DNA from: Parcubacteria group bacterium Athens0714_16
GTDB lineage: Bacteria; Patescibacteriota; Minisyncoccia; Phycocordibacterales; 21-14-all-36-13
DNA length: 53,894 nt
Reading direction: 5' to 3'
Assembly: GCA_007376805.1 (NCBI GenBank)
Contig: VMGX01000001.1
Span: 136,461-190,354 of the forward strand
Below, one piece after another: positions 8,174 to 45,275 of this stretch (position 1 is the first letter of the stretch; every line of letters starts with the position of its first letter). Below the pieces are notes generated by a model. It did not search any database. It saw only the letters and a program-made list of their open reading frames with translations, and was not told where the DNA came from. The position numbers and the translations under genes were made by a program.

Positions 8174-8194
8174 TGCGTGTTTATTTTTAGTTTT

Positions 8195-9364
8195 ATGCCC
8201 ACATTTGACGTATTGCGAATCTACAAAAACAAGGTCTCCAACAAGTTATTTGGGGTTGTGCATTTGCCATCCATTGGTAAAAAGAAGGGTGATGTTCTTC
8301 TTTCTTATATCACTGAATCTTTTACATGCACACCGAGCGAGAGGTTTACTGATCCACACACCAACAAATGGGAGTGCTCAGAAATTGTTCGCTTATTCAC
8401 GTTACGTGGATATGCAGTCGACGTTATCAATTTCAAAAATACTGACTTTATCCCTCGAAAAAAATATGTTGCATGTATAGATATCATGCAAAATCTTGAA
8501 CGCCTGACAAAATACCTGCCAACTAACTGCAAGAAAGTTATGCATATCACTTCTGCTTATGGTGAATTTCAGAACACTGTTGAGAAACAACGCCTCCTAG
8601 AACTTAAACGCCGAAGGAATATCTCTCTCACACCCCATCGCACGGGAGTTGTCTCAAATAACCCGGCGTACGCTGATTTCCTTGAGGGATTGGGGAATCA
8701 AACGACACATGCCACCTACGCCCGGTTCAAAAAACATATTTACCCTATTCCTATATCAGTTGCACGAGAATTTGATTTGCCGGAACAAAAAAACTTTGAA
8801 ACCGCGCGGACACATTTTTTGTGGTTTGGTGGAGGTGGGGCGATACTCAAAGGACTTGATCTTGTAATCGAAGCATTTGCCGATCTACCTAAATTATCCT
8901 TGCATATCGTTGGCCCATTGGCTCGGGAAAAAGACTTCGTACAGGCATACAAATACGAGCTTGCGCTTCCTAACATAAAATATTATCCGCGACCGCACAT
9001 TTTCCCAGATGGAGAAATGCGCTCCGGAGACATCCCATTTCTTGATATAGCGAATCGCTGTTCCACGCTCATCTACCCTTCGGCTTCCGAAGGGACGTCC
9101 GGCGCAGTCGTACAGGCAATGCATGCCGGAATCATTCCTATTATCACGAAACAAACGGGGATTTCCGAGGATGCGCCGGTGATCATCTGTGATACGCCTA
9201 CCGTAGAATCAATCCGGGATCTCGCCATACAAATCACCAAAACCGACCCGCTTGAACTCCGGGAGAGCGCATACAAGGCATGGGGTTACGCGCGGGCACA
9301 TCACACACAAAAAACTTTCAGCGAAGCATACTCGCGTTTTATTGATGATATACTCCATTTATGA
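8195..9364 (+). CDS. Glycosyltransferase family 4 (GT-B, group 1)
   Basis: C-terminal GT-B block FLWFGGGGAILKGLDLVIEAF ... PSASEGTSGAVVQAMHAGIIPIIT (EX7E-like). An ATG at 8195 is preferred over the GTG at 8177. Confidence 0.75.
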   Translation: MPTFDVLRIYKNKVSNKLFGVVHLPSIGKKKGDVLLSYITESFTCTPSERFTDPHTNKWECSEIVRLFTLRGYAVDVINFKNTDFIPRKKYVACIDIMQNLERLTKYLPTNCKKVMHITSAYGEFQNTVEKQRLLELKRRRNISLTPHRTGVVSNNPAYADFLEGLGNQTTHATYARFKKHIYPIPISVAREFDLPEQKNFETARTHFLWFGGGGAILKGLDLVIEAFADLPKLSLHIVGPLAREKDFVQAYKYELALPNIKYYPRPHIFPDGEMRSGDIPFLDIANRCSTLIYPSASEGTSGAVVQAMHAGIIPIITKQTGISEDAPVIICDTPTVESIRDLAIQITKTDPLELRESAYKAWGYARAHHTQKTFSEAYSRFIDDILHL

Positions 9365-10149
9365 ACAAGCCATTAATTTCAGTGATAATACCAACACACA
9401 ACAATTCCTCTACTTTAAGAGAGGCTATTAATTCAATAATTAATCAGACATACAAAAATTTGGAAATAATAATAATTAACGATAATAGTTCTGATAACAC
9501 TTTTGATATTGCAAGAGAATTTGAAAAAAAAGACAGTAGAATAAAAATTTATTATCTCCCCTTTGACGATCCAAATCGTGTAAATAAAAAAGGGAGAAAT
9601 ATAAATGCCGGATATATGGCAAGAAATTATGGTTTTGAAAAATGTAATGGAGAATGGATTACTTTTCAAGACGGAGATGATATTTCTTTACCAAATAGAA
9701 TTGAAATCCAGTATAAATTAACACAAAAATATGATTCAAATCATGTTTGTATAAATTGGAAAAAAGAATATAGAGAAGAAAATAAAATAGATTTAGATGA
9801 CAAAACTAAATTAATAAACAATGCCTCTCTATATAATTTATCTCAAAAAACAAAAGGTTTAATGTACAAATTATTTGGTAAATTAAATTCACATATATCC
9901 TTCCATATTAAAACAATGAGAATACTAAACAAACTATTTTTTGGGTCTTTAGAGCCATATCCACTATGTGGAAGCGTACCCATGGTAAAGAAAGAGATCA
10001 CAGATAAAATAAAATTTAGACAATTGAACGATAGAGTTTGGCCATCATTTACTGGAAGAGGTGCGGACAGAGATTTTAATTTTGCAATTGCAGAAAAATA
10101 CAAAAAGAGTATCTGCTTTGATACCCACCTCTATATATGGAGAGCTTGA
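9361..10149 (+). CDS. Glycosyltransferase family 2
   Basis: ISVIIPTHNNSSTLREAINSIINQTYKNLEIIIINDNSSDNT plus QDGDD (DxD). The start overlaps the upstream stop (ATGA). It ends with TGA. Confidence 0.8.
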   Translation: MNKPLISVIIPTHNNSSTLREAINSIINQTYKNLEIIIINDNSSDNTFDIAREFEKKDSRIKIYYLPFDDPNRVNKKGRNINAGYMARNYGFEKCNGEWITFQDGDDISLPNRIEIQYKLTQKYDSNHVCINWKKEYREENKIDLDDKTKLINNASLYNLSQKTKGLMYKLFGKLNSHISFHIKTMRILNKLFFGSLEPYPLCGSVPMVKKEITDKIKFRQLNDRVWPSFTGRGADRDFNFAIAEKYKKSICFDTHLYIWRA

Positions 10150-27640: not shown

Positions 27641-29143
27641 TTAAAAAATTTCTATCTCGTTTGATATTTTTTGTATCTCATCTTTTTCTTTATCATATGG
27701 TAGTATCGGCTCTTTTTTAACAAAAATAAATCCTATAATTGATAACAAAACCATTGATGACAATCCGACAAGCCATTTAAAAACATCCCCGTTTTGGGCT
27801 GTTTTTGGGGCTAAATCTGAATTAACCACAGTTGCCAAGGAATCCATACTCTCCGTGTTTTTTACCTCATTTTGGGCTTCCTGTGTGTCGGAAATCTCTT
27901 TATTTATAGCATAATTAGACGCTTTAAGCACTTCGGTTAAATCATTTGATTTCGCGACCGTTCCATTGAGAAAAACCTTAGTTACACTTTCACCAAAAGA
28001 TGTAGCCAAACTACCGTTCGGATAAAGTAAGCTAATTTTTGATTGGTTCGTTATATTTAAATTTGTGACACTTTTTGGAAAAATAATTTTTTCGTTCGGA
28101 AGTATTACTGTATTTTTTTGAAGTGTAAAAAAATTATTATCAGCCTGCAAACGCCACCATGATAAATTTAATTCTCTGTTCGTTCTGTTGTATAGTTCTA
28201 TAAAATTTTTATCTGCATCTCTACCAACATTTGATATAACAATATCAGCAGGAAGTGCTGTAACATTTATTCTGTCGGTTACAGAATATTCACCAGAGCT
28301 AGCTTCTAAAAAAACTACATACTTACCGGGATAATTATAGGAGTGCATTATCTTTTTACCTTTTTGAAAGGAACCATCACCAAAATTCCATGTAAATAAT
28401 GCATTTTCAATCGGTTCATCATTAAGACCGATGGCTTTCGCATCAAAAATTGTATCTGCGCCGACAATAACCGTTCTATCTTCGCCTGCATAGGCAAAAA
28501 TCTGTGGATCAAAAGCAGGAGATGTAAAATTTTGTTGTTGTGTTGTTTGAGAATTGTTTGTGACTGTTGTTGTCGCTTGTCCTGAAGGACTTGGGGGCGT
28601 AGATGAAGGTACCGAAGTAATTTCTGAACTTCCCAATGTTGGGTTTCCCGCTTTCCATCCAGAATTTGTTTTTTGTAATGTGTTTCCGTCGCCGGCTCCC
28701 CCCATTTCTTTATTATATAAAACTTTATCTATTTGATTATTTTCTTTATCTAAAATCAAAATTTCTCCTGATATATTTTTCAAACTCATGACAGTGTCTA
28801 TAACTGTACCCGTATAACTTAAATTTTCTGGAATAAATAAATTTGCATCGCCGGAAAGAACCGCATATTCATTTGATTTTAAAATTAATGAACCTCTTCC
28901 ACCATTTTTTGGTGGTTCATTTAATATATGATTAGTAACTCCATCGCCATCATTAAATTTCCAACCAGCTAAATCAACCTGCGCGTTTCCAGAATTAAAA
29001 ATTTCAACCCATTCCCTCCCTGTATCAGAACCTTCAGCTAAGTCATACATTATTTCAGTAATAACAATCTGCCCATGTGCGAAGATGGGCAGAAAAATAA
29101 ATATAATTAAAGCCGTTTTTAGAAAGTTACAACAAGTTTTCAT
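27641..29143 (-). CDS. Secreted/membrane-anchored protein with two lamin-tail domains (LTD) and a PKD domain
   Basis: Signal-like N-terminus. LTD blocks IVITEIMYDLAEGSDTGREWVEIFNSGNAQVDLAGWKF and IVISNVGRDADKNFIELYNRTNRELNLSWWRL. PKD block FTWNFGDGSFQKGKKIMHSYNYPGKYVV. C-terminal TM helix. The ATG is at 29143; the ORF-track start at 29146 is a GTG. Confidence 0.7.
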   Translation of the reverse strand: MKTCCNFLKTALIIFIFLPIFAHGQIVITEIMYDLAEGSDTGREWVEIFNSGNAQVDLAGWKFNDGDGVTNHILNEPPKNGGRGSLILKSNEYAVLSGDANLFIPENLSYTGTVIDTVMSLKNISGEILILDKENNQIDKVLYNKEMGGAGDGNTLQKTNSGWKAGNPTLGSSEITSVPSSTPPSPSGQATTTVTNNSQTTQQQNFTSPAFDPQIFAYAGEDRTVIVGADTIFDAKAIGLNDEPIENALFTWNFGDGSFQKGKKIMHSYNYPGKYVVFLEASSGEYSVTDRINVTALPADIVISNVGRDADKNFIELYNRTNRELNLSWWRLQADNNFFTLQKNTVILPNEKIIFPKSVTNLNITNQSKISLLYPNGSLATSFGESVTKVFLNGTVAKSNDLTEVLKASNYAINKEISDTQEAQNEVKNTESMDSLATVVNSDLAPKTAQNGDVFKWLVGLSSMVLLSIIGFIFVKKEPILPYDKEKDEIQKISNEIEIF

Positions 29144-29252
29144 CACTTAAATTTTAGCATTAGAAATAAATTTTTAAAAATTCCAATAGTGGAAAATTTC
29201 TATTAATTTTATGAAATGAGTATTTTCGTATTTAATTTTTAATTTTCGGTTT

Positions 29253-29397
29253 TTACAGTTAACTGTAATTTTTGACTTATTTATTTTAAATTTTTCGTTC
29301 TTAATTCTCACTCTTTACAGTTAACTGTAATTTTTAATCCTTCACCTCTTATATATCATTCTTTTTATTTTGTTCTACTTTTTACAGTTAACTGTAA
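29253..29397. promoter_or_regulatory. Array of three perfect 16-bp palindromes TTACAGTTAACTGTAA (candidate operators)
   Basis: Perfect copies at 29253-29268, 29315-29330 and 29382-29397, each flanked by T-tracts. They lie between the stop of the TrpR-like gene and the start of the LTD/PKD gene. Confidence 0.6.
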
Positions 29398-29438
29398 AAA
29401 GTTGTTCCTAAAAAAATAAAAAAGTACTACGTCTCATT

Positions 29439-29876
29439 TTATTTCGGCTCTGTAGCTTTATAAAAACCCTTCCACCTTCCTTTTCCTACCTTGGGTGGCA
29501 TCCTCATTTCTAAAAGAGTTTCAATATATGACCAGAATGGGTTATCTTTTATTTTCTTATTTATAAGTGAACCTTTCGGTATTTGATCTATTATAAAACC
29601 ATATTCTCCATCATCCATCTTTTCCGAAATTTTATATATTGTTGTCATGCTTAGTTTGAGTGTTTTTTGTATAACAAAAAAATCATATCCGTACTTTATC
29701 ATTACTATAACAGCAAACCTTTTCGCTATCATAATTTTTTCAGATTCAGTAAACAGTCCGTCTAAAAACATTTTTGTTTTCCCGGGATTGTCCAGTTTGG
29801 AAATATAATTTGTTAATTGGTCACAAATCGCCACAAAAACTTTGTCCTTTAATTTTTTCTTTGAAATATTTGTCAT
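29439..29876 (-). CDS. TrpR/YerC-YecD-like helix-turn-helix DNA-binding protein
   Basis: The core FTESEKIMIAKRFAVIVMIKYGYDFFVIQKTLKLSMTTIYKISEKMDDGEYG matches the TrpR-related pattern (T..E......R..V..M...G.....I......S..TI). Confidence 0.65.
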   Translation of the reverse strand: MTNISKKKLKDKVFVAICDQLTNYISKLDNPGKTKMFLDGLFTESEKIMIAKRFAVIVMIKYGYDFFVIQKTLKLSMTTIYKISEKMDDGEYGFIIDQIPKGSLINKKIKDNPFWSYIETLLEMRMPPKVGKGRWKGFYKATEPK

Positions 29877-29903
29877 ATTTTATACCAGTTTTTAAATAAA
29901 TTT

Positions 29904-30192
29904 TTACAGTTAACTGTAATTTTGGGCTTATTTTATTTTAATTCTTAATTTTTAATTCTTGATTCTTTTTTACAGTTAACTGTAATTTTTGTCCCTCGGT
30001 TTTTGATTTTTGGTTTCTTTATTTTTTTATTTCTTTGTTTTTTGCTCTTGGTTTTTGATTTTCTTTTTTACAGTTAACTATAATTTTGCAATCTATTTAT
30101 TTTTAATTCTTAGTTTTTTACGCTTAACTGTGATTTTTAACTCTCCGAGTTTATCTATGGTTTTTGATTTTCTTTTTTACAGTTAACTGTAA
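29904..30192. promoter_or_regulatory. Array of five copies of the TTACAGTTAACTGTAA palindrome (three perfect, two degenerate)
   Basis: Perfect copies at 29904-29919, 29970-29985 and 30177-30192. One mismatch at 30068-30083 (TTACAGTTAACTATAA). Three mismatches at 30118-30133 (TTACGCTTAACTGTGA). The T-rich spacers share sub-repeats: GGTTTTTGATTTTC(T)n precedes the copies at 30068 and 30177, and TTTTAATTCTT precedes those at 29970 and 30118. Confidence 0.6.
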
Positions 30193-30235
30193 AATTTCTG
30201 CATGAGAAAAAGATTGAATGTTAGAATAATGCTTA

Positions 30236-33200
30236 TTATTCTCCATAAACCCAATTCAAAATTGAATAATTAGAGTGTGGAGCTGGAGATAAGTTGGTTT
30301 TAAAATAATTTCTAAAGTCATTAATATCATTACTACCCTGTCTAATTTCATATATTGCAATAAATATTCTATCCTCATTATTCAAACTTAATACACCCGC
30401 ATCATTTTCAGGACTTTCAACAATTGTCGTTATGTGATTCTTAAGAGAATGACCATTAACGATGATTGAATTGCCGACTTCTCCTTTATAGATATCTCCG
30501 TATGTGGAAACAGTCCTAAAACTTGGAAAAATGTATGTGCATACTCCCTGTGATGGTTTGTATGTCATTCCCTCTTGGAATGTATTAACATAAGGTCCGC
30601 AGTAATAACCAATTCCACTACTGGAAACATTCGCACTGTTTCTTGTTAGTGGAGTTCCATTTATTAAACCATTATTTGCGTTTGTGCCATTCTTTTTATA
30701 TGTATTATTTGAATTCCAATTTGTACTGATTGTTCCACTTATGTCCGGATTTATTCTTTCCATTGTTTTGTAATCAGCCGATGCAGTTCCTGCACACCAA
30801 CCACCTCCACAATCTACAAGATTTGGAGTTTTATCAACGGTCGTTGTCGCCGTTCCGGTTGAATAAACGAGAGATAGAACTTCGCCCGAATTCCCAAGTC
30901 CAGAACCGCTCAAGCCACTAAATGGCGTAACCAAATTTGCAACAACGTTAACAGTTGTATCATCTGTTCTTTCAATTAAATAAAATGAATTTGCTAAAAT
31001 TGTTCCTGAAAGATTTATATACGGAGTTCCGTCTTCTGCAAAAATTACAAATTCAGACATTTTAATTTCCTGCGAACTTCTGTTATATAATTCAATCCAC
31101 TCATCGTTTTCAAGAGTAGCTGAGGTCCCCGCCCAAGCTATTTCATTTATTATTACGGGCATATTTATTGTTGTCTTTACTTGTTTTACATCTGAATATC
31201 TTTCATTGCCCGCCCTATCAACCGCTCTCACTTTAATTTCACTCTGTGAATTTTCTGGAATTGTTATTTCCGTTGTGGTTGCAGTAGTGGTTGTTGCTAA
31301 AACATTATTTAAATAAACTTCATAGTAAGAAATATTTTGTTCGTTGGAATTCCATACTGGATTTATTTTTGTGGTTGGGATTAAACACTCGCTCCCATTT
31401 GTACTTATTGAATGTCCGCATTCGGTTATACTAAATGCACTAAAAATCGGACTTTGTGTATCAACAAAAACTACAAACTCTGTGACGGTAGATGTTGAAT
31501 AACTTGTATTACTTGAAACAAAATTTATTGTTGTTGTCCCTTCTTGAAAACCAGAAAGCGACATTGACCAGTTTTCATTTCCATCGGCTGTGGTTGTAGA
31601 TGTTGAAAAATCGTTTGATATTAAAAGTGTTGACGACGCAATTCCTGAAAATGTAATTGAATTTGTCGCGGACGTGTATGGATTTACTGCTGGTGTTGAA
31701 ATAATAGGTTTTGGTAGATTTTGGACTATAACTCTTCTCGTGATTTCGTTTGCCGTGAGTCCTCCTGAATCCATAACATTATATGAAATTGTGTATGTTC
31801 CGACGGTTGCTGTATCGACTGTTCCTGTTTTAACAATGTTAGCTGTTATACCACCATCTTCTGTATCTGAAGCTGTGGCTCCAGCGTCTGTGTATGTATC
31901 ACCTTTTGTAATTGTCATTTCTGCACTGCCAGTAAGTGTGATCGTGGGATATGTATTTTGTCTTGAATTACCACCTCCGGCTCCTCCGCCACCAAATCCG
32001 GGACCATATTTTGGAGTAATTGGTGCTGGTTCCTGAACATTATATTTAATAGTGCTGTCCGGTATGTTTGGTTGTTGATTTGTTTCCGGTGTTGTTGTAA
32101 TTGTAGTTTGTATTTCATCTACAACAGAATTATTTTGTTCTTGATTATTACTTTCTTGATTTATTACAACATTATTATTAACAACAGGTTGGACCGTGGA
32201 ATAAACTTCATTGCTTTTTTGCTTCGTTGCTCCGTTGCTTTCTTGAGTAACCCCGACACTAGCCGACTGATACAATCCAGCCCCAAATAATTTCTTTATT
32301 GAGTCCCTGTTTTTATTGAACAAAGCCATTGTATCCTCTTCTTCTCTCACTTTTTCAAAGAAAAGTGAAATAACTCCTGACGCATGAAGAACTGCCTGTT
32401 TTGAAAGATGGGACCAGTTGTCAGAAAGAATTAAATCTCCGTCGTCATCTAAAAAATATATGTTTGTATCTTTGTTTGAGAAAAAAGAAATTTTATTTTC
32501 TATACCTATTACTCTGGAAACATCACCTTTTAAATTTTTATATCCAAATGTAATCCCTGTATCTAAATCCTTCTTTTCAAAATCTATTTTTGGTTCAATA
32601 TATTTTTTATCATTTATAGTATCTCCACTAAAAAAATTGTTGTTTGAATAATTAGCCAAACTAGAAAAATAATCAAAAAGTGAAGAAAGTTTTTTTGACT
32701 TTTCTCCACTTTTTACTAATTCTCCTGAAATATCACTTATTGTTTCACTATCATATTTTGTTGTATATGTTTCATAATAATCTCCATTCAAATGCTGGTC
32801 ATCTCTCGTGTGAGCCGGGACAGCCATATCTTCAACCAAATGAAGAATATTGCCTAATGTTTCTAGGCCTCTTTGTTTGTCTCCATTAACATATTCGTAA
32901 ACAGCCCTATCAAAAGAATAATCTGAATTTGAGCTAAAAAAAGACATCAGTTTAGATAAAAGAGCATATTGTGGACTTAACATTGCCTGTGCTTTTGTAT
33001 TTTCAGCCCATTTATATGCTGGAAGAAATTCACCCCACAATCCTTTGTTGTATATTGGGTCATAAAAATGATAAACAGATCTATAAAATGGCTCGTCTTC
33101 TTTTACACTCCCTAAAAGAATTTTTTCTTTATCTTCGTTTGAAATTTTCTTATTATTAATTTCGTTATAGAATTCTATAGTTTCGTTTGTTATTGCCTTG

Positions 33201-33292
33201 TGTGTTACTCCATTATATGAATAAACACCGTTTATAAAAACGAAATTTGCTAAAAATATTATTATCAGAATTACAAACTTTCTATTTTCCAT
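30236..33292 (-). CDS. Giant secreted protein: Zn-dependent phospholipase C / S1-P1 nuclease-superfamily domain + Ig-like (DUF5011/HYR-type) + LTD
   Basis: N-terminal signal/TM. GVTHKAIT ... YHFYDP ... HLVEDMAVPAHTRDD (the His/Asp Zn-ligand pattern of the PLC/P1 fold). Gly-rich linker. PTITLTGSAEMTITKGDTYTDAGATASDTEDGG...VGTYTISYNV Ig-like repeat. LTD block VIINEIAWAGTSATLENDEWIELYNRSSQEI. Confidence 0.7.
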   Translation of the reverse strand: MENRKFVILIIIFLANFVFINGVYSYNGVTHKAITNETIEFYNEINNKKISNEDKEKILLGSVKEDEPFYRSVYHFYDPIYNKGLWGEFLPAYKWAENTKAQAMLSPQYALLSKLMSFFSSNSDYSFDRAVYEYVNGDKQRGLETLGNILHLVEDMAVPAHTRDDQHLNGDYYETYTTKYDSETISDISGELVKSGEKSKKLSSLFDYFSSLANYSNNNFFSGDTINDKKYIEPKIDFEKKDLDTGITFGYKNLKGDVSRVIGIENKISFFSNKDTNIYFLDDDGDLILSDNWSHLSKQAVLHASGVISLFFEKVREEEDTMALFNKNRDSIKKLFGAGLYQSASVGVTQESNGATKQKSNEVYSTVQPVVNNNVVINQESNNQEQNNSVVDEIQTTITTTPETNQQPNIPDSTIKYNVQEPAPITPKYGPGFGGGGAGGGNSRQNTYPTITLTGSAEMTITKGDTYTDAGATASDTEDGGITANIVKTGTVDTATVGTYTISYNVMDSGGLTANEITRRVIVQNLPKPIISTPAVNPYTSATNSITFSGIASSTLLISNDFSTSTTTADGNENWSMSLSGFQEGTTTINFVSSNTSYSTSTVTEFVVFVDTQSPIFSAFSITECGHSISTNGSECLIPTTKINPVWNSNEQNISYYEVYLNNVLATTTTATTTEITIPENSQSEIKVRAVDRAGNERYSDVKQVKTTINMPVIINEIAWAGTSATLENDEWIELYNRSSQEIKMSEFVIFAEDGTPYINLSGTILANSFYLIERTDDTTVNVVANLVTPFSGLSGSGLGNSGEVLSLVYSTGTATTTVDKTPNLVDCGGGWCAGTASADYKTMERINPDISGTISTNWNSNNTYKKNGTNANNGLINGTPLTRNSANVSSSGIGYYCGPYVNTFQEGMTYKPSQGVCTYIFPSFRTVSTYGDIYKGEVGNSIIVNGHSLKNHITTIVESPENDAGVLSLNNEDRIFIAIYEIRQGSNDINDFRNYFKTNLSPAPHSNYSILNWVYGE

Positions 33293-34016: not shown

Positions 34017-34286
34017 TTATTTTTCAATTTTTAAAATTCCTCGTAAAACATCTTCTGGAATTTCTTTTTGTTCAGTGTCTTTTGGTATTTCTGTTTTAGC
34101 AGTCGCTTCAGTTGGTTTGTTTTGAACAGCGTCAATAGAAACTGGTGGATTTTCTTTTACTGCTTCTTTTTCGAATAATTCTTTCTCTTTTTTATAATCC
34201 TGTTCAATTGTGTTTTGTGTAGTTTCTGTTGTATTAGTATTTGTTTCTGTGTTTGTAATACTCTCATCAATAGTTAGTATTTCCAT
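34017..34286 (-). CDS. Hypothetical acidic Thr/Glu-rich ORF, or a frameshifted continuation of the upstream tail
   Basis: Low-complexity ORF overlapping the end of the 617-aa gene in another frame. Candidate Met codons at 34346, 34301, 34295 and 34286 all lie inside the overlap. Confidence 0.3.
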   Translation of the reverse strand: MEILTIDESITNTETNTNTTETTQNTIEQDYKKEKELFEKEAVKENPPVSIDAVQNKPTEATAKTEIPKDTEQKEIPEDVLRGILKIEK

Positions 34287-36120
34287 TTGTTCCATTACCA
34301 TTAACACCGCCGGAAGCCAAAGCTTCGCCGTTCTTTTTAGTTTCACTTAAAATTTCACTCAACGCCTCTCTCAACGCGAAAACATTTTCTTCGGACATTT
34401 TTTTCTTCCTTTCAACTGGTTTTTTTGCATCTTCGGCTGGTTTCAAATAATTAAGCGCTATCGCCTTTCTAAATTCTTCTTCGTTGCTTTGTGTTTTGAA
34501 TGGTTTATGAAAATTATTCCCCTGAAAACCATCTCGACGTGTATTATTTCGTTTAAAATCATTTCTTTCTATTGGGTTTCTATTTTCGGACTTATTTTCA
34601 ATTTTGGGTTCAACTTTATTTTCTATTTTAGTTTCTGGCTTAACTTCCGACTTAGTTTCACTTTTATAATTAGGAAATTTTCCTCTTTGAAGATTATTAA
34701 CTGGTACAGAATTTTGAGTTTTGCTGTTTACAAAACCATTTTTATTACTTTCAGTTGTTTTATTATTTACAACTTCACCAACATTTTTACTAGCCCCGTT
34801 GGTTGAGCTACTTTTTTTCTCTGATTTGTTTGTATTTGTGTGCCATTCAATAATGTATTTTTCAACTTCAGCACGTGGCCTAGCAAATCTTTTTCTTGAG
34901 TTTTCAATTATTCTTTCTTTGTAAGAAACGGGTGGCGCTGGTATTGGTGGTAATGTTCTTGCAGAAAATGGCTGTGAGCTTATGCCATCTATCAACAACT
35001 TAATATAAATCTGCGCAAACCCAAGATTAACCAAATCTTCTGGCGTAAACTGCGGGGCAAACTCTTTTTCCAATTCATTTGCGTCATTTGCACCTATACG
35101 AAAAACTATCATAGTCCCTACGTTACCAAACACAGCTGCTTTTACTTCATCTTGCATTTGTTCTATGTACTGATGTGCAATATTTAAATTTAATTTATAT
35201 TTTCTCGCTTCTGACAAAATGTCTGCGAACGATTCATTGGCAAATGATTGAAATTCGTCAACGTGAAGATAAAAATTTGGAAGTTTTCTTAATTCTTCTT
35301 GTGAAGCATCTGCACGAGACATTGATGCCAAATAAATTTTTGTTATTAACATACCGCCCAAAAGATTTGCGTTTGCTTCACCCACTCTTCCCTTTGATAG
35401 GTTTATAATTACTATTTTTTTATTATCTTCTATATCTCTAATATCAAAACTCGAATGTGGTTGCCCTATTATATTTCTTATAAGTGGATTAGAAATAAAC
35501 TGACCAACTTTGTTTTGTATAGCGGCACCAGCTTCTTGCATATATCTTTCACCATATTTTGCAAATTCATCCTGCCAGAATGCTTTTACAGAAACATCTG
35601 TGACATTATCAACGACCATTTTTCTATAATCTTTGTCAGCTAACATTCTATTTACTCCCAAAAGAGTAGCATCTGGATATTCCAAAAGTGCTAAAAGAAT
35701 GTTATTCAAAATATATTCCATTCTCGCAGACCATGCATCAAGCCAAATCTTTTTAAATGCACTCATCAGGCCGTTGGCAACAAGATGTCTTTTATCAATA
35801 CCAACATCCTCCATCACATTGAATGAAACCGGATATTCCAAATCGAAAGGAGCAAAATAAAGAACATCATCAATTCTGCTTTCTGGAACATAATCAAGAA
35901 GTAGTTCTGCTGATTTTCCGTGCGGGTCGACAAAAGCCATTCCATTACCATTCTGGATATCTTGAATCGCCATATTTTCTAGTAGAGTAGATTTTCCTGT
36001 TCCTGTTTTTCCTATGACATAAACGTGTCTTATTCTGTCTGCCTCTTTTATGCCAAATTTAGTTTTGTTATTTCTGTAATCCGTTTCAGCAAAATATGTA
36101 ATTTTATCTCCATTTGCCAT
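34267..36120 (-). CDS. Soluble P-loop NTPase of the VirD4/TraG/TraD coupling-protein (HerA/FtsK) type with a long low-complexity C-terminal tail
   Basis: Walker A VIGKTGTGKSTLL, then AFVDPHGKS, and Walker B FYLHVDEFQSF. No N-terminal TM segments. The tail carries Lys/Glu/Asn-rich repeats (KSETKSEVKPETKIENKVEPKIENKSENR). TATAAT lies at 36128-36133, 7 nt before the ATG. Confidence 0.7.
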   Translation of the reverse strand: MANGDKITYFAETDYRNNKTKFGIKEADRIRHVYVIGKTGTGKSTLLENMAIQDIQNGNGMAFVDPHGKSAELLLDYVPESRIDDVLYFAPFDLEYPVSFNVMEDVGIDKRHLVANGLMSAFKKIWLDAWSARMEYILNNILLALLEYPDATLLGVNRMLADKDYRKMVVDNVTDVSVKAFWQDEFAKYGERYMQEAGAAIQNKVGQFISNPLIRNIIGQPHSSFDIRDIEDNKKIVIINLSKGRVGEANANLLGGMLITKIYLASMSRADASQEELRKLPNFYLHVDEFQSFANESFADILSEARKYKLNLNIAHQYIEQMQDEVKAAVFGNVGTMIVFRIGANDANELEKEFAPQFTPEDLVNLGFAQIYIKLLIDGISSQPFSARTLPPIPAPPVSYKERIIENSRKRFARPRAEVEKYIIEWHTNTNKSEKKSSSTNGASKNVGEVVNNKTTESNKNGFVNSKTQNSVPVNNLQRGKFPNYKSETKSEVKPETKIENKVEPKIENKSENRNPIERNDFKRNNTRRDGFQGNNFHKPFKTQSNEEEFRKAIALNYLKPAEDAKKPVERKKKMSEENVFALREALSEILSETKKNGEALASGGVNGNGTNGNTNY

Positions 36121-36587: not shown

Positions 36588-36592
36588 TTTTA

Positions 36593-36664
36593 CCTCCTAT
36601 TTTTTACTTATTATTGAACTAATTTTCGTATATATTATATATTATTCAATAATTTTGTCAAATT
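36593..36664 (-). promoter_or_regulatory. Promoter + leader cassette (TTGACA-16 nt-TATAAT, AGGAGG SD), copy 1
   Basis: -35 TTGACA at 36656-36661 and -10 TATAAT at 36634-36639 (minus strand). About 54 nt (36611-36664) are near-identical to 44689-44746. Confidence 0.6.
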
Positions 36665-36862
36665 TATTTCCAATCTTCAGTGACGTCGTATCTCTGCTAT
36701 CGCGGAGATACGACGTCACTTCTGTTTTTGTGATTTAATATCTTAGTGTTTTAAGAAAAAACACTGCGGATTCAAAATCTCAAAATTTGAATAAATCCCT
36801 AACACTTTTCTTAAGAACCTCCCCCAGAGATTCTTAAGTTAGAGATTTTGAATTTAGTGATT

Positions 36863-38475: not shown

Positions 38476-39159
38476 TTATTTTTCTGGAACAATAACAACA
38501 AATTCCCCCTTTATTTTGTCCAGATTTTGTTCAAAATATTTCAATAATTCTTCTCCTGTTCCCGAAATTATTTGTTCATAAATTTTTGTTAGTTCACGAG
38601 CTAAAATAATTTTACGTTCATTACCTAAATGTTGTTTTAAAGATTCTAGCGTTTTTAAAATACGATGCGGGGATTCATAAAACGCAACTGTTCTTTTTGA
38701 TTCTGAGATTTCTTTAAACAATGTTTCTCTTCCTTTTTTGTGTGGTAGAAATCCCAAAAATAAAAAATCTGATGCAGGAACACCTGCGCCAGAAAGAGCT
38801 GAGATAACTGCGCTTGGTCCGGGTATTGGAATAATTTGTATATCTTCTAAAAATTTTTCTTTAATTTTCGAAACAAGGAGTGAACCGGGGTCAGAAATAC
38901 ACGGCGTCCCTGCATCAGAAACAAGCGCCAATATTTTTCCTTCATCAATTAAATCTAAAATCTTATCAATTTTTGCCAACTTACTTTGAGAATGATAACT
39001 CATTGTTGGAGTTTTGATTTCGTATTTATCAAGTAGTTTTTTAGTAACCCTTGTGTCTTCACACAAAACCAAATCAACCTCTTTTAGTATACGAATCGCT
39101 CTAAGAGTTATATCCTCAAGATTTCCTATTGGTGTGGCTATCACATAAAATTGTTTCAT
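38476..39159 (-). CDS. rsmI: 16S rRNA (cytidine1402-2'-O)-methyltransferase
   Basis: FYVIATPIGNLEDITLRAIRILKEVDLVLCEDTRVTKKLL ... SDAGTPCISDPG is the typical RsmI/tetrapyrrole-methylase-fold N-terminus. Confidence 0.85.
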   Translation of the reverse strand: MKQFYVIATPIGNLEDITLRAIRILKEVDLVLCEDTRVTKKLLDKYEIKTPTMSYHSQSKLAKIDKILDLIDEGKILALVSDAGTPCISDPGSLLVSKIKEKFLEDIQIIPIPGPSAVISALSGAGVPASDFLFLGFLPHKKGRETLFKEISESKRTVAFYESPHRILKTLESLKQHLGNERKIILARELTKIYEQIISGTGEELLKYFEQNLDKIKGEFVVIVPEK

Positions 39160-39247: not shown

Positions 39248-39499
39248 TTATTTTTTAGATAAACGCTTGTAAAAAATATTAGCTGCGTAATCTTCTTCAC
39301 CGGGTGAACATTTTTGAATCAAAAATTTTCCTAGTTTATATTTTTTTGATCCAAAAATATAAGCAGAGTCATAACTTTCAAAATCTCCACGCACCCTATT
39401 CCCAAATATGAGAAGATACCTACCGTTGTATTTTTTGACAAGTTTCGTCTGGTTTCTAAGATAAAATTCAAATTCTATCTTTAAAGCATTTCGTGCCAT
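39248..39499 (-). CDS. Small hypothetical protein (83 aa)
   Basis: ATG preceded by GGAGG (39504-39508) at 4-nt spacing. It has its own terminator. No family was recognised with confidence. Confidence 0.5.
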   Translation of the reverse strand: MARNALKIEFEFYLRNQTKLVKKYNGRYLLIFGNRVRGDFESYDSAYIFGSKKYKLGKFLIQKCSPGEEDYAANIFYKRLSKK

Positions 39500-39963: not shown

Positions 39964-40737
39964 TTAGTTTTTATCATCTGCCAAAAACTCATATATACAA
40001 ATCGTAGCGGGAACAGCAAAAATTAAAAACAAAAATTCCTCAAGTGCAAACCCAACTCCAAATATTTCTACCCAACCTATATTCATTCCTTTTACAAATC
40101 TCCAATGCCCCAGGTGAACCGCAAGTACTTCATAAATAACGGAAACAAAGAAAAACCAGAATCCTTGAATGGAAATTTTTTTAATCAAAGAAGGATAATT
40201 CCAACACATCAAAATTATTGGGATGAGAAAAAATATTATTAAACCTACAATATAAAAATTCTTAATTACCAATAATTCTCTATTTGTAATGTATATAAAA
40301 GAAAAAAGAAAAATTAATAAAATTGATGCATAAACCCAAAATTTTAAATTTTTTGATATTTTTGTTTTATTTTTGTCTTTGTCAAAAAAATATTCATAAA
40401 AAATAGTTATAAAATAGAAGTAGATGAACCCCCAAATAAAAATATCTAACGGATATGCATTAAGAATTGTTATCCCCAAAGAACCATTTTCATACCAACA
40501 ACCACTCACATTGCATATATAATCAAACACAAATGCCATAGGAAAAGAAAAGGCGATTGAAAATAACGCTGATTTTTTTATGGAGGTTTTTAGCTTAAAT
40601 GATAAGAAAACAGAAGGAATACCAAAAAGTAATATCACGGTTTCAAGATACCCGAGTTTAAATTGATAAACAACAAAAGTAAAAAATAAAAATGCTAATG
40701 TAATATAAAATAAATCTTTCTTTTTTTCTTTGTTCAT
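39964..40737 (-). CDS. Polytopic membrane protein, possibly lycopene-cyclase-domain family
   Basis: About 7 TM segments. Two half-domain motifs resemble the CrtYc/Yd-type domain (YPLDIFIWGFIYF ... ALEEFLFLIFAVP). Low-confidence family call. Confidence 0.45.
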   Translation of the reverse strand: MNKEKKKDLFYITLAFLFFTFVVYQFKLGYLETVILLFGIPSVFLSFKLKTSIKKSALFSIAFSFPMAFVFDYICNVSGCWYENGSLGITILNAYPLDIFIWGFIYFYFITIFYEYFFDKDKNKTKISKNLKFWVYASILLIFLFSFIYITNRELLVIKNFYIVGLIIFFLIPIILMCWNYPSLIKKISIQGFWFFFVSVIYEVLAVHLGHWRFVKGMNIGWVEIFGVGFALEEFLFLIFAVPATICIYEFLADDKN

Positions 40738-40756
40738 TTTTTAATACTCATTTAAA

Positions 40757-41893
40757 TTATATCACGATTCGTTTGAGTCGTTCTGGTATATGCACTAAAA
40801 TTTCATAAGGAATAGTAGCACATTTTTGAGCGATTTTTATAACAGAATTTTCATCTGCACTTTTAGAACTTATGATTACAACTTCGTCTCCTATTTTTAC
40901 TTGTTCAATATCTGAAACATCAATCGTTGTTATGTTCATACTAACCATGCCTAAAATTGGACAAAATTTGTTTTGAATTTTTAAAAAACCATTATTTGAA
41001 AGTCGTCTATCAACTCCTTCATAATACCCAACTGGGACTGTTGCAATTTTCATATTTTTTTCTGCTGTAAATGTTGTGTTGTATCCTATTTTATCGCCTT
41101 TTTTTATTTCTTTAATTGAACTAATTACTGATTTCATTTCTAAAACTGGTTTTAAATTTAATCTATCATCTAAACTTGTATTTATTCCATATAGTCCTAT
41201 TCCCAATCTCATTAAATTCGCATTTACACTATCTGCAAATAAACTACCCGCTGTTGCTGATATGTGATAATAGATTGTTTCTGGAAAATTTTTCTTCCAA
41301 ATTTCAACTAGATTGTTCCATTTTTCGATCTGGTTTGTTGTGAAATCAGAATCATCGCCGTCTGCATCCGCAAAATGTGAACATATTCCTTCAATAAAAA
41401 TATTTTTATTATTTTTTATTAGAATGATTGTTTTTTCTATTTCTTTATCCAAAATACCGTTTCTGTGCATTCCTGTATCAAATTTTATGTGAAAATTTGT
41501 TTTTGTTTTTAAATTTTTAGATATATTTTCTAATTGTTCGAGAGAACCGATGGTGAAAGCAATATTTTTTAATTTATTATTTAAAATATTTTCTTCTAAT
41601 GAATAACCTATTATTAAAATTTCGGATTTTATTCCTTCGTTTCTTAAAATCATTGCTTCATAAAATGAATCGACAACAAGAAAAGGAATGCTTTCTGTAT
41701 CTAAAATTTTTGCGATTTCAATAAGCCCATGCCCATAGGCATTACTTTTTAAAACTGGAGCGACGTCAACTTTTGTATTCAGTTTTCTAAATTCATTTAA
41801 ATTATGAAGAAGATTTTCTTTATATATAAAAACCTCAACAAGTGATTTGTATCTAAATCTCTTTTCTCTTATTTTTCTGAATAGTTTTCTCAT
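40757..41893 (-). CDS. alr: Alanine racemase
   Basis: PLP-lysine block APVLKSNAYGHGL and C-terminal PVGYYEGVDRRLSN; about 378 aa. Confidence 0.85.
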   Translation of the reverse strand: MRKLFRKIREKRFRYKSLVEVFIYKENLLHNLNEFRKLNTKVDVAPVLKSNAYGHGLIEIAKILDTESIPFLVVDSFYEAMILRNEGIKSEILIIGYSLEENILNNKLKNIAFTIGSLEQLENISKNLKTKTNFHIKFDTGMHRNGILDKEIEKTIILIKNNKNIFIEGICSHFADADGDDSDFTTNQIEKWNNLVEIWKKNFPETIYYHISATAGSLFADSVNANLMRLGIGLYGINTSLDDRLNLKPVLEMKSVISSIKEIKKGDKIGYNTTFTAEKNMKIATVPVGYYEGVDRRLSNNGFLKIQNKFCPILGMVSMNITTIDVSDIEQVKIGDEVVIISSKSADENSVIKIAQKCATIPYEILVHIPERLKRIVI

Positions 41894-41912
41894 TGTGCGC
41901 GTGCCAGGACTC
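41893..41912 (-). repeat. 20-nt exact copy of the tRNA-Ile 3' end abutting the alr start codon
   Basis: TTGTGCGCGTGCCAGGACTC at 41893-41912 is identical to 42032-42051. The latter covers the tRNA-Ile T-arm/acceptor 3' strand plus 3 nt of trailer. Confidence 0.8.
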
Positions 41913-42034
41913 TCGAGCTACGCTCGCTGGTGATTTTCCCGTTTTGTTAAAACAAAACATGGAAAATCCTTTCTCGTCCTGAACGAAAGCAAAGCAGTTT
42001 GCTTTCTCACTTGCACAACTCACTTTGTTCGTTG

Positions 42035-42108
42035 TGCGCGTGCCAGGACTCGAACCTGGGACCTCAGTCTTATCAGGACTGCGCTCTAACCACCTGAGCT
42101 ACACGCGC
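42035..42108 (-). tRNA. tRNA-Ile (anticodon GAU)
   Basis: Minus-strand sequence GCGCGTG-TA-GCTC-AGGTGGTTA-GAGC-G-CAGTC-CTGATAA-GACTG-AGGTC-CCAGG-TTCGAGT-CCTGG-CACGCGC-A folds as a canonical cloverleaf. CCA is not encoded. Confidence 0.92.
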
Positions 42109-42205
42109 GTTTCTTTTGCGTGTAGCGAAGGTAATAACACCTGCCTGTCCGCCTCTGACGGAAGCTACACGCGCATTTCTTTGTTTAGAACAATAAAAAT
42201 ATACC

Positions 42206-42233
42206 AAAAAACTCGCCCCATGGCGAGTTTTTT
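42206..42233. terminator. Bidirectional-looking terminator hairpin between 16S and tRNA-Ile
   Basis: AAAAAA-CTCGCC-CCAT-GGCGAG-TTTTTT is a GC stem flanked by an A-run and a T-run. Confidence 0.55.
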
Positions 42234-42656
42234 GATTACTTCTACTGTTCACTCTACTCCACGATAACAGAATAGAGTGGATACTTATTTTTTATTTAAA
42301 CACAAAAACCACCATTACAGCGGTTTCTAATTTTTTCTAATTTCATTAGAAATTAGAAATTAGTTATTGGACATTTCAAATTTAAAACTTCGTTTTAAAT
42401 TTGGTAATTACCCTCTCTTTTGTTTCGTTCAACTATCAGTTTCGTATATCTGACCAAACGGATGTACTTTAGGATAGGACATCAGTACCCTTTCTGTTTG
42501 TATGTTTGTCCACTTAGAGCGGAAAACACAGAAAATCAACCCTTTAATTTTATCTCCTTGAGAGAGATAAAAGTTTTTTTTTAAAATAATCCACGACCAC
42601 CTTCCGGTAGCCGTACCTTGTTACGACTTACTCCCTGTCACCGAATTTACCTTAGG

Positions 42657-42762
42657 CCCAGCACCACTTTTCTAAACTTTTCGTTAAACGATAGCTGTAT
42701 ATAAAAATTTTTTAAAAATTAAAAAAATTATATTAGCTTGCGTTTCGAAAAGTGGTGCTGGG
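42657..42762 (-). other. AT-rich expansion at the tip of 16S helix 44
   Basis: A perfect 16-bp closing stem (CCCAGCACCACTTTTC / GAAAAGTGGTGCTGGG) encloses about 74 nt of very AT-rich sequence. Confidence 0.7.
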
Positions 42763-42835
42763 ACTTCGGGTACCCCCGGCTCCCTTGAGTTGACGGGCGG
42801 TGAGTACAAGGCTCGAGAACGTATTCACCGCAGTA

Positions 42836-42871
<36 letters not shown>

Positions 42872-43024
42872 AGGTCGAGTTGCAGACCTCAATCCGAACT
42901 AGGACCGATTTTTAGGATTGGCTCAGGATTGCTCCGTCGCGACCTATTGTATCGGCCATTGTATTACGTGTGTAGCCCAGGGCATCAAAGGGACATGCTG
43001 ACCTGGCGTCATCCTCTCCTTCCT

Positions 43025-43225
43025 CCCAGCCCCAAAAGTACTTCGCTTCGCTAGTACTTAAAATTTAAAATTAAAAAATCAAAGTTTAAAGTTGTCATGT
43101 CCGCCGAAGGCGGACAAACTATTTTGATTGTAAATTTTTCAAAAAAAATTTACTCAACAATTTTGCATTTTGAGATTTACATTTTGCATTTAAGTATTTA
43201 CGAAGTAAATACGCTTGGGGCTGGG
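43025..43225 (-). other. Insertion of about 173 nt in the 16S helix 40 loop (E. coli ~1165)
   Basis: GAGACTGCCCAGCCCCAA ... TTGGGGCTGGGAGGAAGG brackets AT-rich sequence with one GC hairpin (GTCCGCC-GAAG-GCGGAC, 43099-43115). The equivalent E. coli loop is only a few nt. Confidence 0.75.
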
Positions 43226-43561
43226 CAGTCTCGTCTGAAATTTATAACAGACAACAAGGGTTGCGTTCGTTTCCCTACTTAAAGGAACAGCTCAAGCCAC
43301 GAACTGACGACGGCCATGCATCACCTGCCTATTCGTTTAGATTTTCTGTTTCCAGAAAAACATAAAATAGGTTTCAAGCCCTGGTGAGGTTCTTCGGTTA
43401 GTATCGAATTAAACCACATAATCCACCGCTTGTGCGAGCCCCCGTCTATTTCTTTGAGTTTTAACCTTGCGATCGTACTACCCAGGCGGTTCTCTTAATG
43501 CGTTAGCTACGCCTCCCAGAGGGTCGATACTCCGGAAAGCTAGAGAACAACGTTTACGGCG

Positions 43562-43592
<31 letters not shown>

Positions 43593-44140
43593 CCCCACGC
43601 TTTCGTGTTTCAGTGTCAGGAAATGTGCTAGTTTATTGCCTTCGCTTTTGGTGTTCCCCATAATATCAACGGATTTCACCCCTACACTATGAGTTCCATA
43701 AACCCTTCACACCCTCTAGTTGTACCGTTTCTCTTGCGTCTCTTCGGTTAAGCCGAAGGTTTTGACAAAAGACTAATACAACCACCTACACACCCTTTAC
43801 GCCCAATAATTCCGGATAACGCTTGGGGCCTCTGTATTACCGCTCCTGCTGGCACAGAGTTAGGAGCCCCTTATTCATGAGGTAACGTCAATAATTTCCT
43901 CCCTCATAAAAGATCTTTACGTCCCTAAGGACTTCATCAATCACGCGATGTCGCTCCGTCAGGCTTTCGCCCATTGCGGAAGATTCTCGACTGCTGCCAC
44001 CCGTAGGTGTATGGACCGTGTCGCAGTTCCACCGGTGGAGGTCAGGCTCTCACCTCTCCTAGACGTCATAGCCTTGGTAAGCTTTTACCTTACCAACTAG
44101 CTGATATCCCGCAGGCCGATCCCAAAGCGATAAATCTTTA

Positions 44141-44193
44141 CTGAATTCTGCTTTTTAAATTTTTAAATAAAAAATCCAAAAAGCAGAATTCAG
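44141..44193 (-). other. Extended hairpin in the 16S V2 region (helix 10)
   Basis: A perfect 16-bp stem (CTGAATTCTGCTTTTT / AAAAAGCAGAATTCAG) with an AT-only loop, at a position where most 16S have a hairpin of about 12 nt. Confidence 0.65.
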
Positions 44194-44562
44194 ACCATCA
44201 GGTATTATCCCGCCTTTCGACGGGTTATCCCTGACTTTGGGGGTCGTTCCTACGTGTTACTACCTCGTTTGCCGTGGGTCTAAACCCACTCGACTTGCAT
44301 GCCTAATCCACATCGCCAGCGTTCATCCTGAGCTAGAATCAAACTCTAATTTAAATACCTTGCGAAATTGGGCAAGCCCAAAATTCCAAGATAAAGTTGA
44401 ACGAAACAAAAGAATTGATAATTTCCGTCCGAGACGGATCCGCCCCTGGCGGACAATTTTCTTGCTTCAAAATATTTCTAAAAAATAGACAGGTTTCTAT
44501 ATTCTTATTTCAAGGTTCTCATACTTCGGGCAACAAAAAAGCCACCTTTCAGTAAGGATGTA

Positions 44563-44590
44563 ATTATATACATTCCATTTCAAAAGTCAA
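44563..44590 (-). promoter_or_regulatory. Candidate sigma70-type promoter for the 16S gene
   Basis: On the minus strand, TTGACT (44585-44590), a 16-nt spacer, then TATAAT (44563-44568), about 210 nt upstream of the 16S 5' end. Confidence 0.45.
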
Positions 44591-44688: not shown

Positions 44689-44763
44689 AAATTTGACAAA
44701 ATTATTGAATAATATATAATATATAAGAAAATTAGTTCAATAATAATTTAATTTCTTTGGAGG
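44689..44763 (+). promoter_or_regulatory. Promoter + leader cassette (TTGACA-16 nt-TATAAT, GGAGG SD), copy 2
   Basis: TTGACA at 44693-44698, TATAAT at 44715-44720 and GGAGG at 44759-44763. The stretch 44689-44746 is near-identical to the reverse complement of 36611-36664. Confidence 0.6.
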
Positions 44764-44768
44764 AAAAA

Positions 44769-45275
44769 ATGAGAGTATTAAGAAATATTCAATCCATTTT
44801 GGGTTATAGGGTTTATAAAAATAACTCCGAATTTTTTATTTTGTCTTTTGTTGGTGGAACTTTATTGGTTGGTATATCTACATCTTCATTGTCATCTGGT
44901 TTTTCTTTTTATCCATTGCTACTGTTATTGCTCGGTGTAACATTATATTTTTCTTTTCTCGTCGGGATAAACAATGTGTCCCCCCAAAAAAACTGGCGTG
45001 TTGCGATTTTGAAAGCAACCCAAACACGGGAGAAATTTAATGTCCTTGGTTCGTGGGTGAGTAATGAAGTTTTTTCAAAATTTTCTGTTTTGATAATTGA
45101 AACACAGTTATCAAAAAACCCTGAAAAACTGAATGAGTTTATTCAAAAGGTCCAAAAATGCGACCAGATGAAAAAAACTCAAAAAGAAAAAAGGGAGTTA
45201 CTAAAAAAACTTCCTGATGAGATAAACAAACTTGATACGGAAATTTATCTCTTAGAAAATTCTTTACTTCCATGA
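44769..45275 (+). CDS. Hypothetical membrane protein with C-terminal coiled-coil-like region (ORFan)
   Basis: The ATG at 44769 lies 5 nt after GGAGG; the ORF-track TTG at 44757 falls inside the SD. Two TM segments. Followed by two terminator hairpins. Confidence 0.6.
   Translation: MRVLRNIQSILGYRVYKNNSEFFILSFVGGTLLVGISTSSLSSGFSFYPLLLLLLGVTLYFSFLVGINNVSPQKNWRVAILKATQTREKFNVLGSWVSNEVFSKFSVLIIETQLSKNPEKLNEFIQKVQKCDQMKKTQKEKRELLKKLPDEINKLDTEIYLLENSLLP

Follow-up and report, generated by a model that had tools for sequence, protein, structure and literature searches.

The window, by which we mean the whole stretch of 53,894 nucleotides from Parcubacteria group bacterium Athens0714_16 analysed here (contig VMGX01000001.1), contains a 16S rRNA gene (rrs) that is very probably an intact, functional-looking Parcubacteria/Patescibacteria gene whose tail has lost the CCUCC core of the anti-Shine-Dalgarno (anti-SD) sequence and now consists of A and U only, a state inherited by its clade. 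It would be a clean, well-supported case of a free-living bacterial lineage with ribosomes unable to use Shine-Dalgarno (SD) pairing, with a bearing on the annotation of 16S 3′ ends and on how minimal ribosomes initiate; it also indicates that SD-based models mislead gene calling and start-site prediction in CPR genomes.

The full-length gene lies at 42579..44354 on the minus strand and matched the Rfam model of bacterial SSU rRNA (RF00177) with 1332 bits, against a threshold of 50, over model positions 1-1533. It has CPR-type insertions and is unlinked to 23S; Rfam detected no 23S or 5S rRNA gene in the window, and a single tRNA. We observed a 191-nt insertion in the helix-40 loop (about 43036-43226, minus strand) and an 81-nt A/T-rich hairpin extension at the tip of helix 44 (about 42665-42750, minus strand). 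When the 3′ end was aligned to the model, the 1492-1506 region (AAGUCGUAACAAGGUA) matched it with standard pairs, and helix 45 (GGUACGGCUACCGGAAGGUGGUCGUGGAU; 42592..42615, minus strand) formed a 10-pair stem with a GGAA loop in which all pairs are standard (UACGGCUACC-GGAA-GGUGGUCGUG, also given as CGGCUACC-GGAA-GGUGGUCG), followed by GAU at 42591..42589. The normal 1492 region and helix 45 described in the initial annotation were thus borne out, and the sequence quoted there is accurate, being the reverse complement of the plus strand. Past the GGAU, which ends at 42589, the tail starts at 42588 and reads UAUUUUAAAAAAAAAC in place of CACCUCCUU. The last 10 model positions (CACCUCCUUu) aligned to UAUUUUAAAA essentially without matches, and the CCUCC core that RF00177 places in the single-stranded 3′ tail is absent. 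The segment at the anti-SD position (42573..42588, minus strand) is A/U only except for its last base, and alignment and folding predict it to be single-stranded: the 16 nt after GGAU were unpaired in the centroid structure, and the isolated tail had a minimum free energy (MFE) of 0 kcal/mol. The position of the mature 16S 3′ end is one that we infer. CCTCC was not found by an exact search of the minus strand from 40586 to 44037, an interval that includes the tail and all 470 nt of the spacer to tRNA-Ile, and a search of the whole window for GATCACCTCCTT with 3 mismatches gave chance-level matches only. The model alignment and the exact search therefore confirm what had been noted earlier, namely that the 16S 3′ end is without the CCUCC tail and that no CCUCC occurs up to tRNA-Ile.

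The sequence after helix 45 also changed from GAUCA to GAUUA. Era recognises GAUCACCUCC, and era has been lost in most CPR (PMC10582724; PMC12641178). Judged from the sequence, the change removes the predicted Era binding site, in keeping with published reports that most CPR classes have lost era. Searched for as loss-correlated genes, era, rpsU, rpsA, infC and rplA were not found in the window, which holds no ribosomal protein genes. Elsewhere in the gene, the 515F primer region (43835-43870, minus strand) reads GTGCCAGCAGGAGCGGTAA, with two mismatches relative to the universal GTGCCAGCMGCCGCGGTAA, and the 505-507/524-526 pairing of the 530 region, read directly from the Rfam alignment, covaries, UCC/GGA replacing GGC/GCC. 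Given these mismatches and the compensating UCC in the 505-507 partner, standard primers probably miss this organism. A G+C-rich hairpin motif, GTCCGCC...GGCGGAC, occurs in a 16S insertion (43098-43116), in the rrs leader (44439-44453) and upstream of tRNA-Ile (42140-42160), and similar hairpins are present in the trailer of one related locus, L126.

Around the gene we recognised the elements of a transcription unit, all on the minus strand. A promoter-like site, TTGACT-16-TATAAT, with 11/12 consensus matches, lies at 44563..44590. The leader and the trailer pair with each other in a processing helix, whose 5′ strand (AUUAUCAAUUCUUUUGUUUCGUUCAACU) occupies 44395..44422 and whose 3′ strand (AGUUGAACGAAACAAAAGAGAGGGUAAU), at 42407..42434, begins about 150 nt past GGAU. 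In an alignment of 11 lineages with both flanks, drawn from tail groups A, B and C (see below), this helix (leader CUUUUGUUUCGUUCA, trailer UGAACGAAACAAAAG) was conserved in all 11; 95.8% of the cells were paired, against about 50% when the partner was slid by 1-3 columns, and both-sided changes were found in 10 pairs. The trailer motif was not located in L128 (group B) or L136 (group D). The helix appears to be the expected kind of pre-16S processing stem, and stems of this kind are RNase III substrates. Closer to the gene, a first trailer hairpin, UUUUAUCUC-UCUCAAG-GAGAUAAAA (42548..42572), was predicted in both the MFE and the centroid fold, and its stem has compensatory changes in L143/148 (UUGUCUC/GAGACAA) and L126 (CUUGUUCC/GGAAUAAG); more hairpins are predicted beyond it, up to the processing helix. 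The unit ends before tRNA-Ile at a strong intrinsic terminator-like hairpin (42203..42236), a 15-pair stem followed by a U-run, and equivalent hairpins were found in relatives. Helix 45 together with GAUUAUUUUA also scores as terminator-like; since the processing helix is conserved downstream, transcription should normally read through it.

Downstream of rrs, ARAGORN and Rfam placed tRNA-Ile(GAU) at 42034..42108 (minus strand). It is flanked by fragments of a second tRNA-Ile on the same strand: a 5′ piece upstream, GCGCGTGTAGCT (42167-42178), and a 3′ T-arm and acceptor fragment, GAGAGTCCTGGCACGCGCA (41896-41914), which ends 2 nt before the ATG (41893) of the alanine racemase gene (alr). In L126 (4666-4910) the outer tRNA-Ile is split exactly in its anticodon loop by about 170 nt that hold a complete second tRNA-Ile. 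As for the remainder of the window, positions 56-26842 carry a large polysaccharide biosynthesis cluster (GDP-mannose dehydratase and epimerases, a Wzm/Wzt ABC exporter, many glycosyltransferases, methyltransferases and asparagine synthase), with LTD/PKD surface proteins (27641-33292) and then a VirD4/TrwB-like ATPase (34267-36120) coming after it; DUF4015, TP_methylase, alr, gatCA, ligA and type IV pilus parts are also encoded. The TP_methylase-family protein, of 227 aa (38476-39159, minus strand), lies near rrs, has a −10 element placed for a leaderless transcript, and may be RsmI, the 16S C1402 2′-O-methyltransferase.

We examined the spread of the loss with a metagenome scan in which the lineage's helix-45 sequence was the query and the tail was left unconstrained. 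The 27 loci returned, together with Patescibacteria group bacterium UBA3458 and UBA3530, which have the same helix type, made up 29 relatives. CCUCC was missing after GGAU in all 29, so that, in a comparison of the type made by Tsurumaki et al., the motif is absent also in relatives. Their 16S sequences share about 78-96% identity with the window over aligned segments; UBA3458 and UBA3530, the only named relatives, share about 81-92% over partial 16S segments. The genes range from about 1450 to 3900 nt, with insertions that vary widely, and helix 45 has a compensatory change from C-G to G-C in four loci (L070, L093, L140 and L146). The tails fall into subgroups: A, UAUUUUAAAA..., conserved between the window and L129, L147, L143/148 and L126/131; B, UAUUUCAAAUUGAAC, in L123, L124, L127, L128 and L130; C, UCAUUCCGAUUGGAA, in L070, L093 and others; D, UAUUUAAAACAAAAAACC, in L136, L138, L141 and L149; and a single locus, L133, with UAUAUUAAAUGAAAUCC. 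The loss of CCUCC is well supported as a trait that would have been inherited clade-wide, and not as a defect of the window copy.

A second scan, of a genome collection, used helix 45, then GGAT, then any base except C; among the matches listed, 12 of 123 were without CCUCC (10 without the window's own assemblies, L001 and L002). The matches listed were mostly GGAUUACCUCC variants from SAR11, Rickettsiales and Saccharibacteria in which the anti-SD is kept, so they are no guide to how the loss is distributed. Two other CPR classes among them, Saccharibacteria and Dojkabacteria, have GGAUUACCUCCUU with an intact anti-SD, and for this reason we regard the loss as derived within the present branch. 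In the archaeal 16S of a Heimdallarchaeota MAG (RDOB01000001, locus L072), GGAU and CACCUCC are separated by about 30 additional nt, possibly a small intervening sequence in the 3′ tail.

Translation starts were analysed in the window and related loci, taking as genes the ORFs of at least 100 aa chosen by a greedy longest-ORF rule (n = 134-140). The regions upstream of the starts were 80-90% A+U, G stayed at or below about 20% throughout −25 to −1, including −12 to −6, and codons 2-3 were A-rich. AGGAG or GGAGG starting between −22 and −9 was present in 16 of 134 genes (12%), a low SD usage that agrees with the earlier statement that most genes have no SD. Among the window's 45 counted ORFs, 2 have such a motif at SD spacing, and three more window starts with an SD-like motif fall outside this count: 39248-39499 (shorter than 100 aa), 44769-45275 (called from an upstream TTG) and 8177-9364 (GAGGAG). 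We also found that hexamer starts of an extended −10 element (TGnTAnnnT) peak at −14 to −12, a placement found in 18/134 genes where about 1.4 would be expected (other positions have about 0.5 each), and that a looser −10-like hexamer starts at −15 to −11 in 30/140 genes (about 21%), 7 of them in the window. In these genes 6-8 nt separate the promoter −10 element from the start codon, as in a leaderless regime. Since transcription from a hexamer starting at −15 to −11 would begin at the ATG or a few nt from it, these mRNAs are predicted to be leaderless, in the window for example those of 34267-36120, 38476-39159 and 9361-10149. In two related loci, L125 (9928-9930) and L132 (1788-1792), the tRNA-Ile 3′ end is only 1-3 nt away from the ATG that follows, a spacing at which tRNA processing could leave the mRNA with a near-leaderless 5′ end.

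From the loss of CCUCC in an intact gene, its occurrence as a trait of the relatives, the scarcity of SD motifs and the close −10 elements, we infer that SD:anti-SD pairing would play no part in initiation at most genes. Ribosomes would instead bind unstructured start regions rich in A and U, as well as leaderless or near-leaderless mRNAs made from promoters 6-8 nt upstream of the ATG; some of the near-leaderless mRNAs could possibly originate from tRNA 3′ processing just before the ATG. The initial annotation had offered three accounts of the missing tail, and the first of them, that the lineage has lost anti-SD pairing, is supported by the 29 relatives without CCUCC and by the rarity of SD-like motifs.

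The SD-like motifs that persist speak against a simple form of this explanation, because the complete loss of any mechanism that reads GGAGG does not predict that such motifs would be enriched and conserved. At canonical spacing AGGAG/GGAGG is enriched about 7-fold (16/134 against 2.4 expected), and the positions of 4-mer SD cores show a peak from −15 to −8. Three group-C Cu-oxidase_4 orthologs with differing flanks retain the motif, which is also conserved in an ORFan cassette of group A. This cassette, a repeated promoter-leader unit, precedes small membrane ORFans at 36588-36665 (minus strand) and 44693-44768 (plus strand); it comprises TTGACA-16-TATAAT (12/12 consensus matches), the conserved 5′ UTR GAAAATTAGTTCAATAATAA, and (A)ATTTCYTTAGGAGGAAAAA-ATG, also given as TTTCCTTAGGAGGAAAAA-ATG. 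A 20-mer from it occurs exactly twice in the window, at 36627..36608 (minus strand) and 44727..44746 (plus strand), with 0.1 expected, and the cassette recurs in L126, L129, L143 and L148, in the first of these ahead of unrelated ORFs. The SD-bearing ORFans are small predicted membrane proteins with no Pfam matches. The caveat attached to the initial annotation, that some ORFans have perfect SD sites, was correct, and at least two of these ORFans in the window share the cassette. A common function of the SD-bearing genes was considered and discarded, as they are heterogeneous (membrane ORFans, DUF4015, Cu-oxidase_4, formyltransferase).

Among other options, the GGAGG motif may have been acquired recently, may form part of a regulatory hairpin, or may be recognised by an unknown reader. 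The predicted hairpin UUUCC-UUAGGA-GGAAA would present GGA in its loop, and a CsrA-type RNA-binding regulator presumably recognises GGA in a small hairpin of this sort. It is conceivable, though unlikely, that GGAGG is still recognised by an element distinct from the canonical tail, be it another ribosomal element, a CsrA-type regulator or a specialised or trans-supplied anti-SD; the genes it reads would then form a small translation class under separate control. The residual conserved motifs are the only part of the analysis that might repay further work.

The well-placed SD-like motifs in about 12% of the genes could also be served by a second rrs with a canonical anti-SD elsewhere in the genome, which would give a heterogeneous ribosome population. 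The evidence here comes from one window of the genome, and Alteromonas has been reported to have two 16S types with different anti-SDs (PMC6107228). However, a second, canonical rrs with the same helix 45 should have been met at least sometimes by a scan that is indifferent to the tail, and with helix 45 alone constrained a canonical tail was found in 0 of the 27 metagenome matches. CPR genomes usually have one rRNA gene set, which also counts against this possibility. Moreover, the motif's absence has been reported in surveys of complete Parcubacteria genomes (PMC9297842; PMC10783764). We therefore consider a second rrs copy, the third of the accounts first proposed, very unlikely.

A replacement for the anti-SD within the new tail is still less probable, and we give it little credence. 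According to this idea, the tail would pair with a co-evolved, non-canonical motif upstream of the genes; the first nucleotides after GGAU are indeed kept within subgroups (UAUUUU, UAUUUC, UCAUUCC), and tail-to-mRNA binding without a CCUCC core has been described in other organisms (PMC10783764). Nevertheless, duplexes between a subgroup's tail and positions −22 to −3 of genes from that subgroup were no better than far-upstream or shuffled controls (duplex energy of −1.82 against −1.95 and −2.12 in group A; −3.84 against −4.44 for shuffled sequences in group C), no subgroup-specific complementary k-mer (AAAAU, GAAAU, GGAAU) was visible upstream of the starts, and a duplex of A and U only would be very weak. 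Separately, we considered a mini-hairpin immediately after GGAU, suggested by an apparent covariation between subgroups (UUCC/GGAA, UUCA/UGAA, UUUU/AAAA), and rejected it for want of thermodynamic support: 4 of 6 subgroup tails had an MFE of 0 to −0.5 kcal/mol or folded through the GGAU bases, the other two formed a weak A-U stem of 3-4 bp, and none folded better than shuffled sequences.

Equally hard to credit is a displaced anti-SD, supplied by a downstream CCUCC exon after excision of an intervening sequence, or by a small RNA in trans. In its favour are the insertion-rich rRNA genes of CPR (the window 16S has its 191-nt and 81-nt insertions), the precedent of the extra nucleotides before CACCUCC in L072, and the roughly 150 nt of conserved trailer enclosed by the processing helix. 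Against it, the rRNA strand has no CCUCC in the tail, the trailer or the spacer, nothing like GAUCACCUCCUU occurs above chance anywhere in the window, and no downstream (GAU)CACCUCC segment that could be a split-off tail was found in the tail, trailer, spacer or window. The motif is also absent from all group-A and group-B trailers, and a CCUCG in group C is buried in a palindromic stem.

Finally, the alr protein encoded next to rrs recurs in two other samples, on contigs of ERZ27284374 (52.9 kb) and ERZ27284377 (9.6 kb), where the 16S end, spacer, tRNA and alr region are base-identical. An assembly artefact or a 3′-disrupted pseudogene, in which a chimeric join or deletion removed the true tail, has as its sole hint the abrupt low-complexity A/T sequence right after GGAU, and is excluded for practical purposes by this junction being identical in two assemblies from different samples, by the same tail in L129 and L147, from an unrelated study of Hainich groundwater, by the absence of CCUCC in 29/29 relatives, by the covarying processing helix that brackets the gene and about 150 nt of trailer, and by the promoter and terminator of rrs; the identical junctions and the intact transcription unit contradict the remaining account in the initial annotation, that of a disrupted or misassembled copy.

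The inherited loss of the CCUCC core agrees with what has been described for Parcubacteria. Only 48% of the 16S genes in that group were found to contain CCTCCT (Tsurumaki et al. 2022, RNA 28:1041; PMC9297842); the Parcubacteria without it largely overlap the group lacking uL1, and the same authors infer that no SD helix is formed in them (PMC9297842). Candidatus Wolfebacteria GW2, Candidatus Campbellbacteria, SR1 and Peribacter are likewise SD-scarce and without CCUCC (PLoS One 2024, e0289914; PMC10783764), and organisms without an anti-SD generally also have no SD enrichment (Amin et al. 2018, PMC6107228). Anti-SD loss in Parcubacteria is therefore already published, contrary to the novelty implied in the initial annotation (PMC9297842; PMC10783764), and the window is one more instance of it. 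Beyond the published absence of the motif, our analysis describes how the trailer is built and where the processing helix lies, and it adds the leaderless-type promoters and the conserved SD-like motifs that remain; its value lies in these, in the anatomy of the rrs transcription unit and in the exclusion of an artefact.

Compared with the anti-SD-less 16S of other Parcubacteria/Paceibacteria, the window gene has the same CPR-type insertions, normal helix 45, absence of CCUCC(U), scarce SD motifs and clade-wide occurrence; nothing essential differs, and the nearest named relatives found here are Patescibacteria MAGs. Anti-SD-less 16S genes reportedly also occur in reduced insect endosymbionts (Carsonella, Zinderia, Hodgkinia and Nasuia; Lim 2012; Amin 2018); among the genome-scan matches listed, Zinderia insecticola (L080) reads GGAU-UACAUUUUAAAUU. 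As in these, the CCUCC core is lost in an A/T-rich, reduced genome where SD motifs are rare. The origin is independent, however, and the endosymbionts are obligately intracellular and extremely reduced, whereas the present lineage belongs to a broad environmental clade with well-conserved processing signals. In Bacteroidota, ribosomes have an anti-SD that is sequestered, and SD is rarely used. Most genes there also begin without SD pairing, in A-rich start regions, but CCUCC is kept (GGAUUACCUCC in L005, L027 and L082, among the matches listed), whereas here the sequence itself is gone. Mitochondrial small-subunit rRNA offers an analogy only: it has no anti-SD past helix 45 and initiates on leaderless mRNAs, as we suppose for this lineage. 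The tRNA punctuation of mitochondria would likewise be an analogy, limited to one locus type (L125, L132), for mRNA 5′ ends that tRNA processing could form; in contrast to mitochondria, the genomes described here are free bacterial genomes with sigma-70-type promoters.
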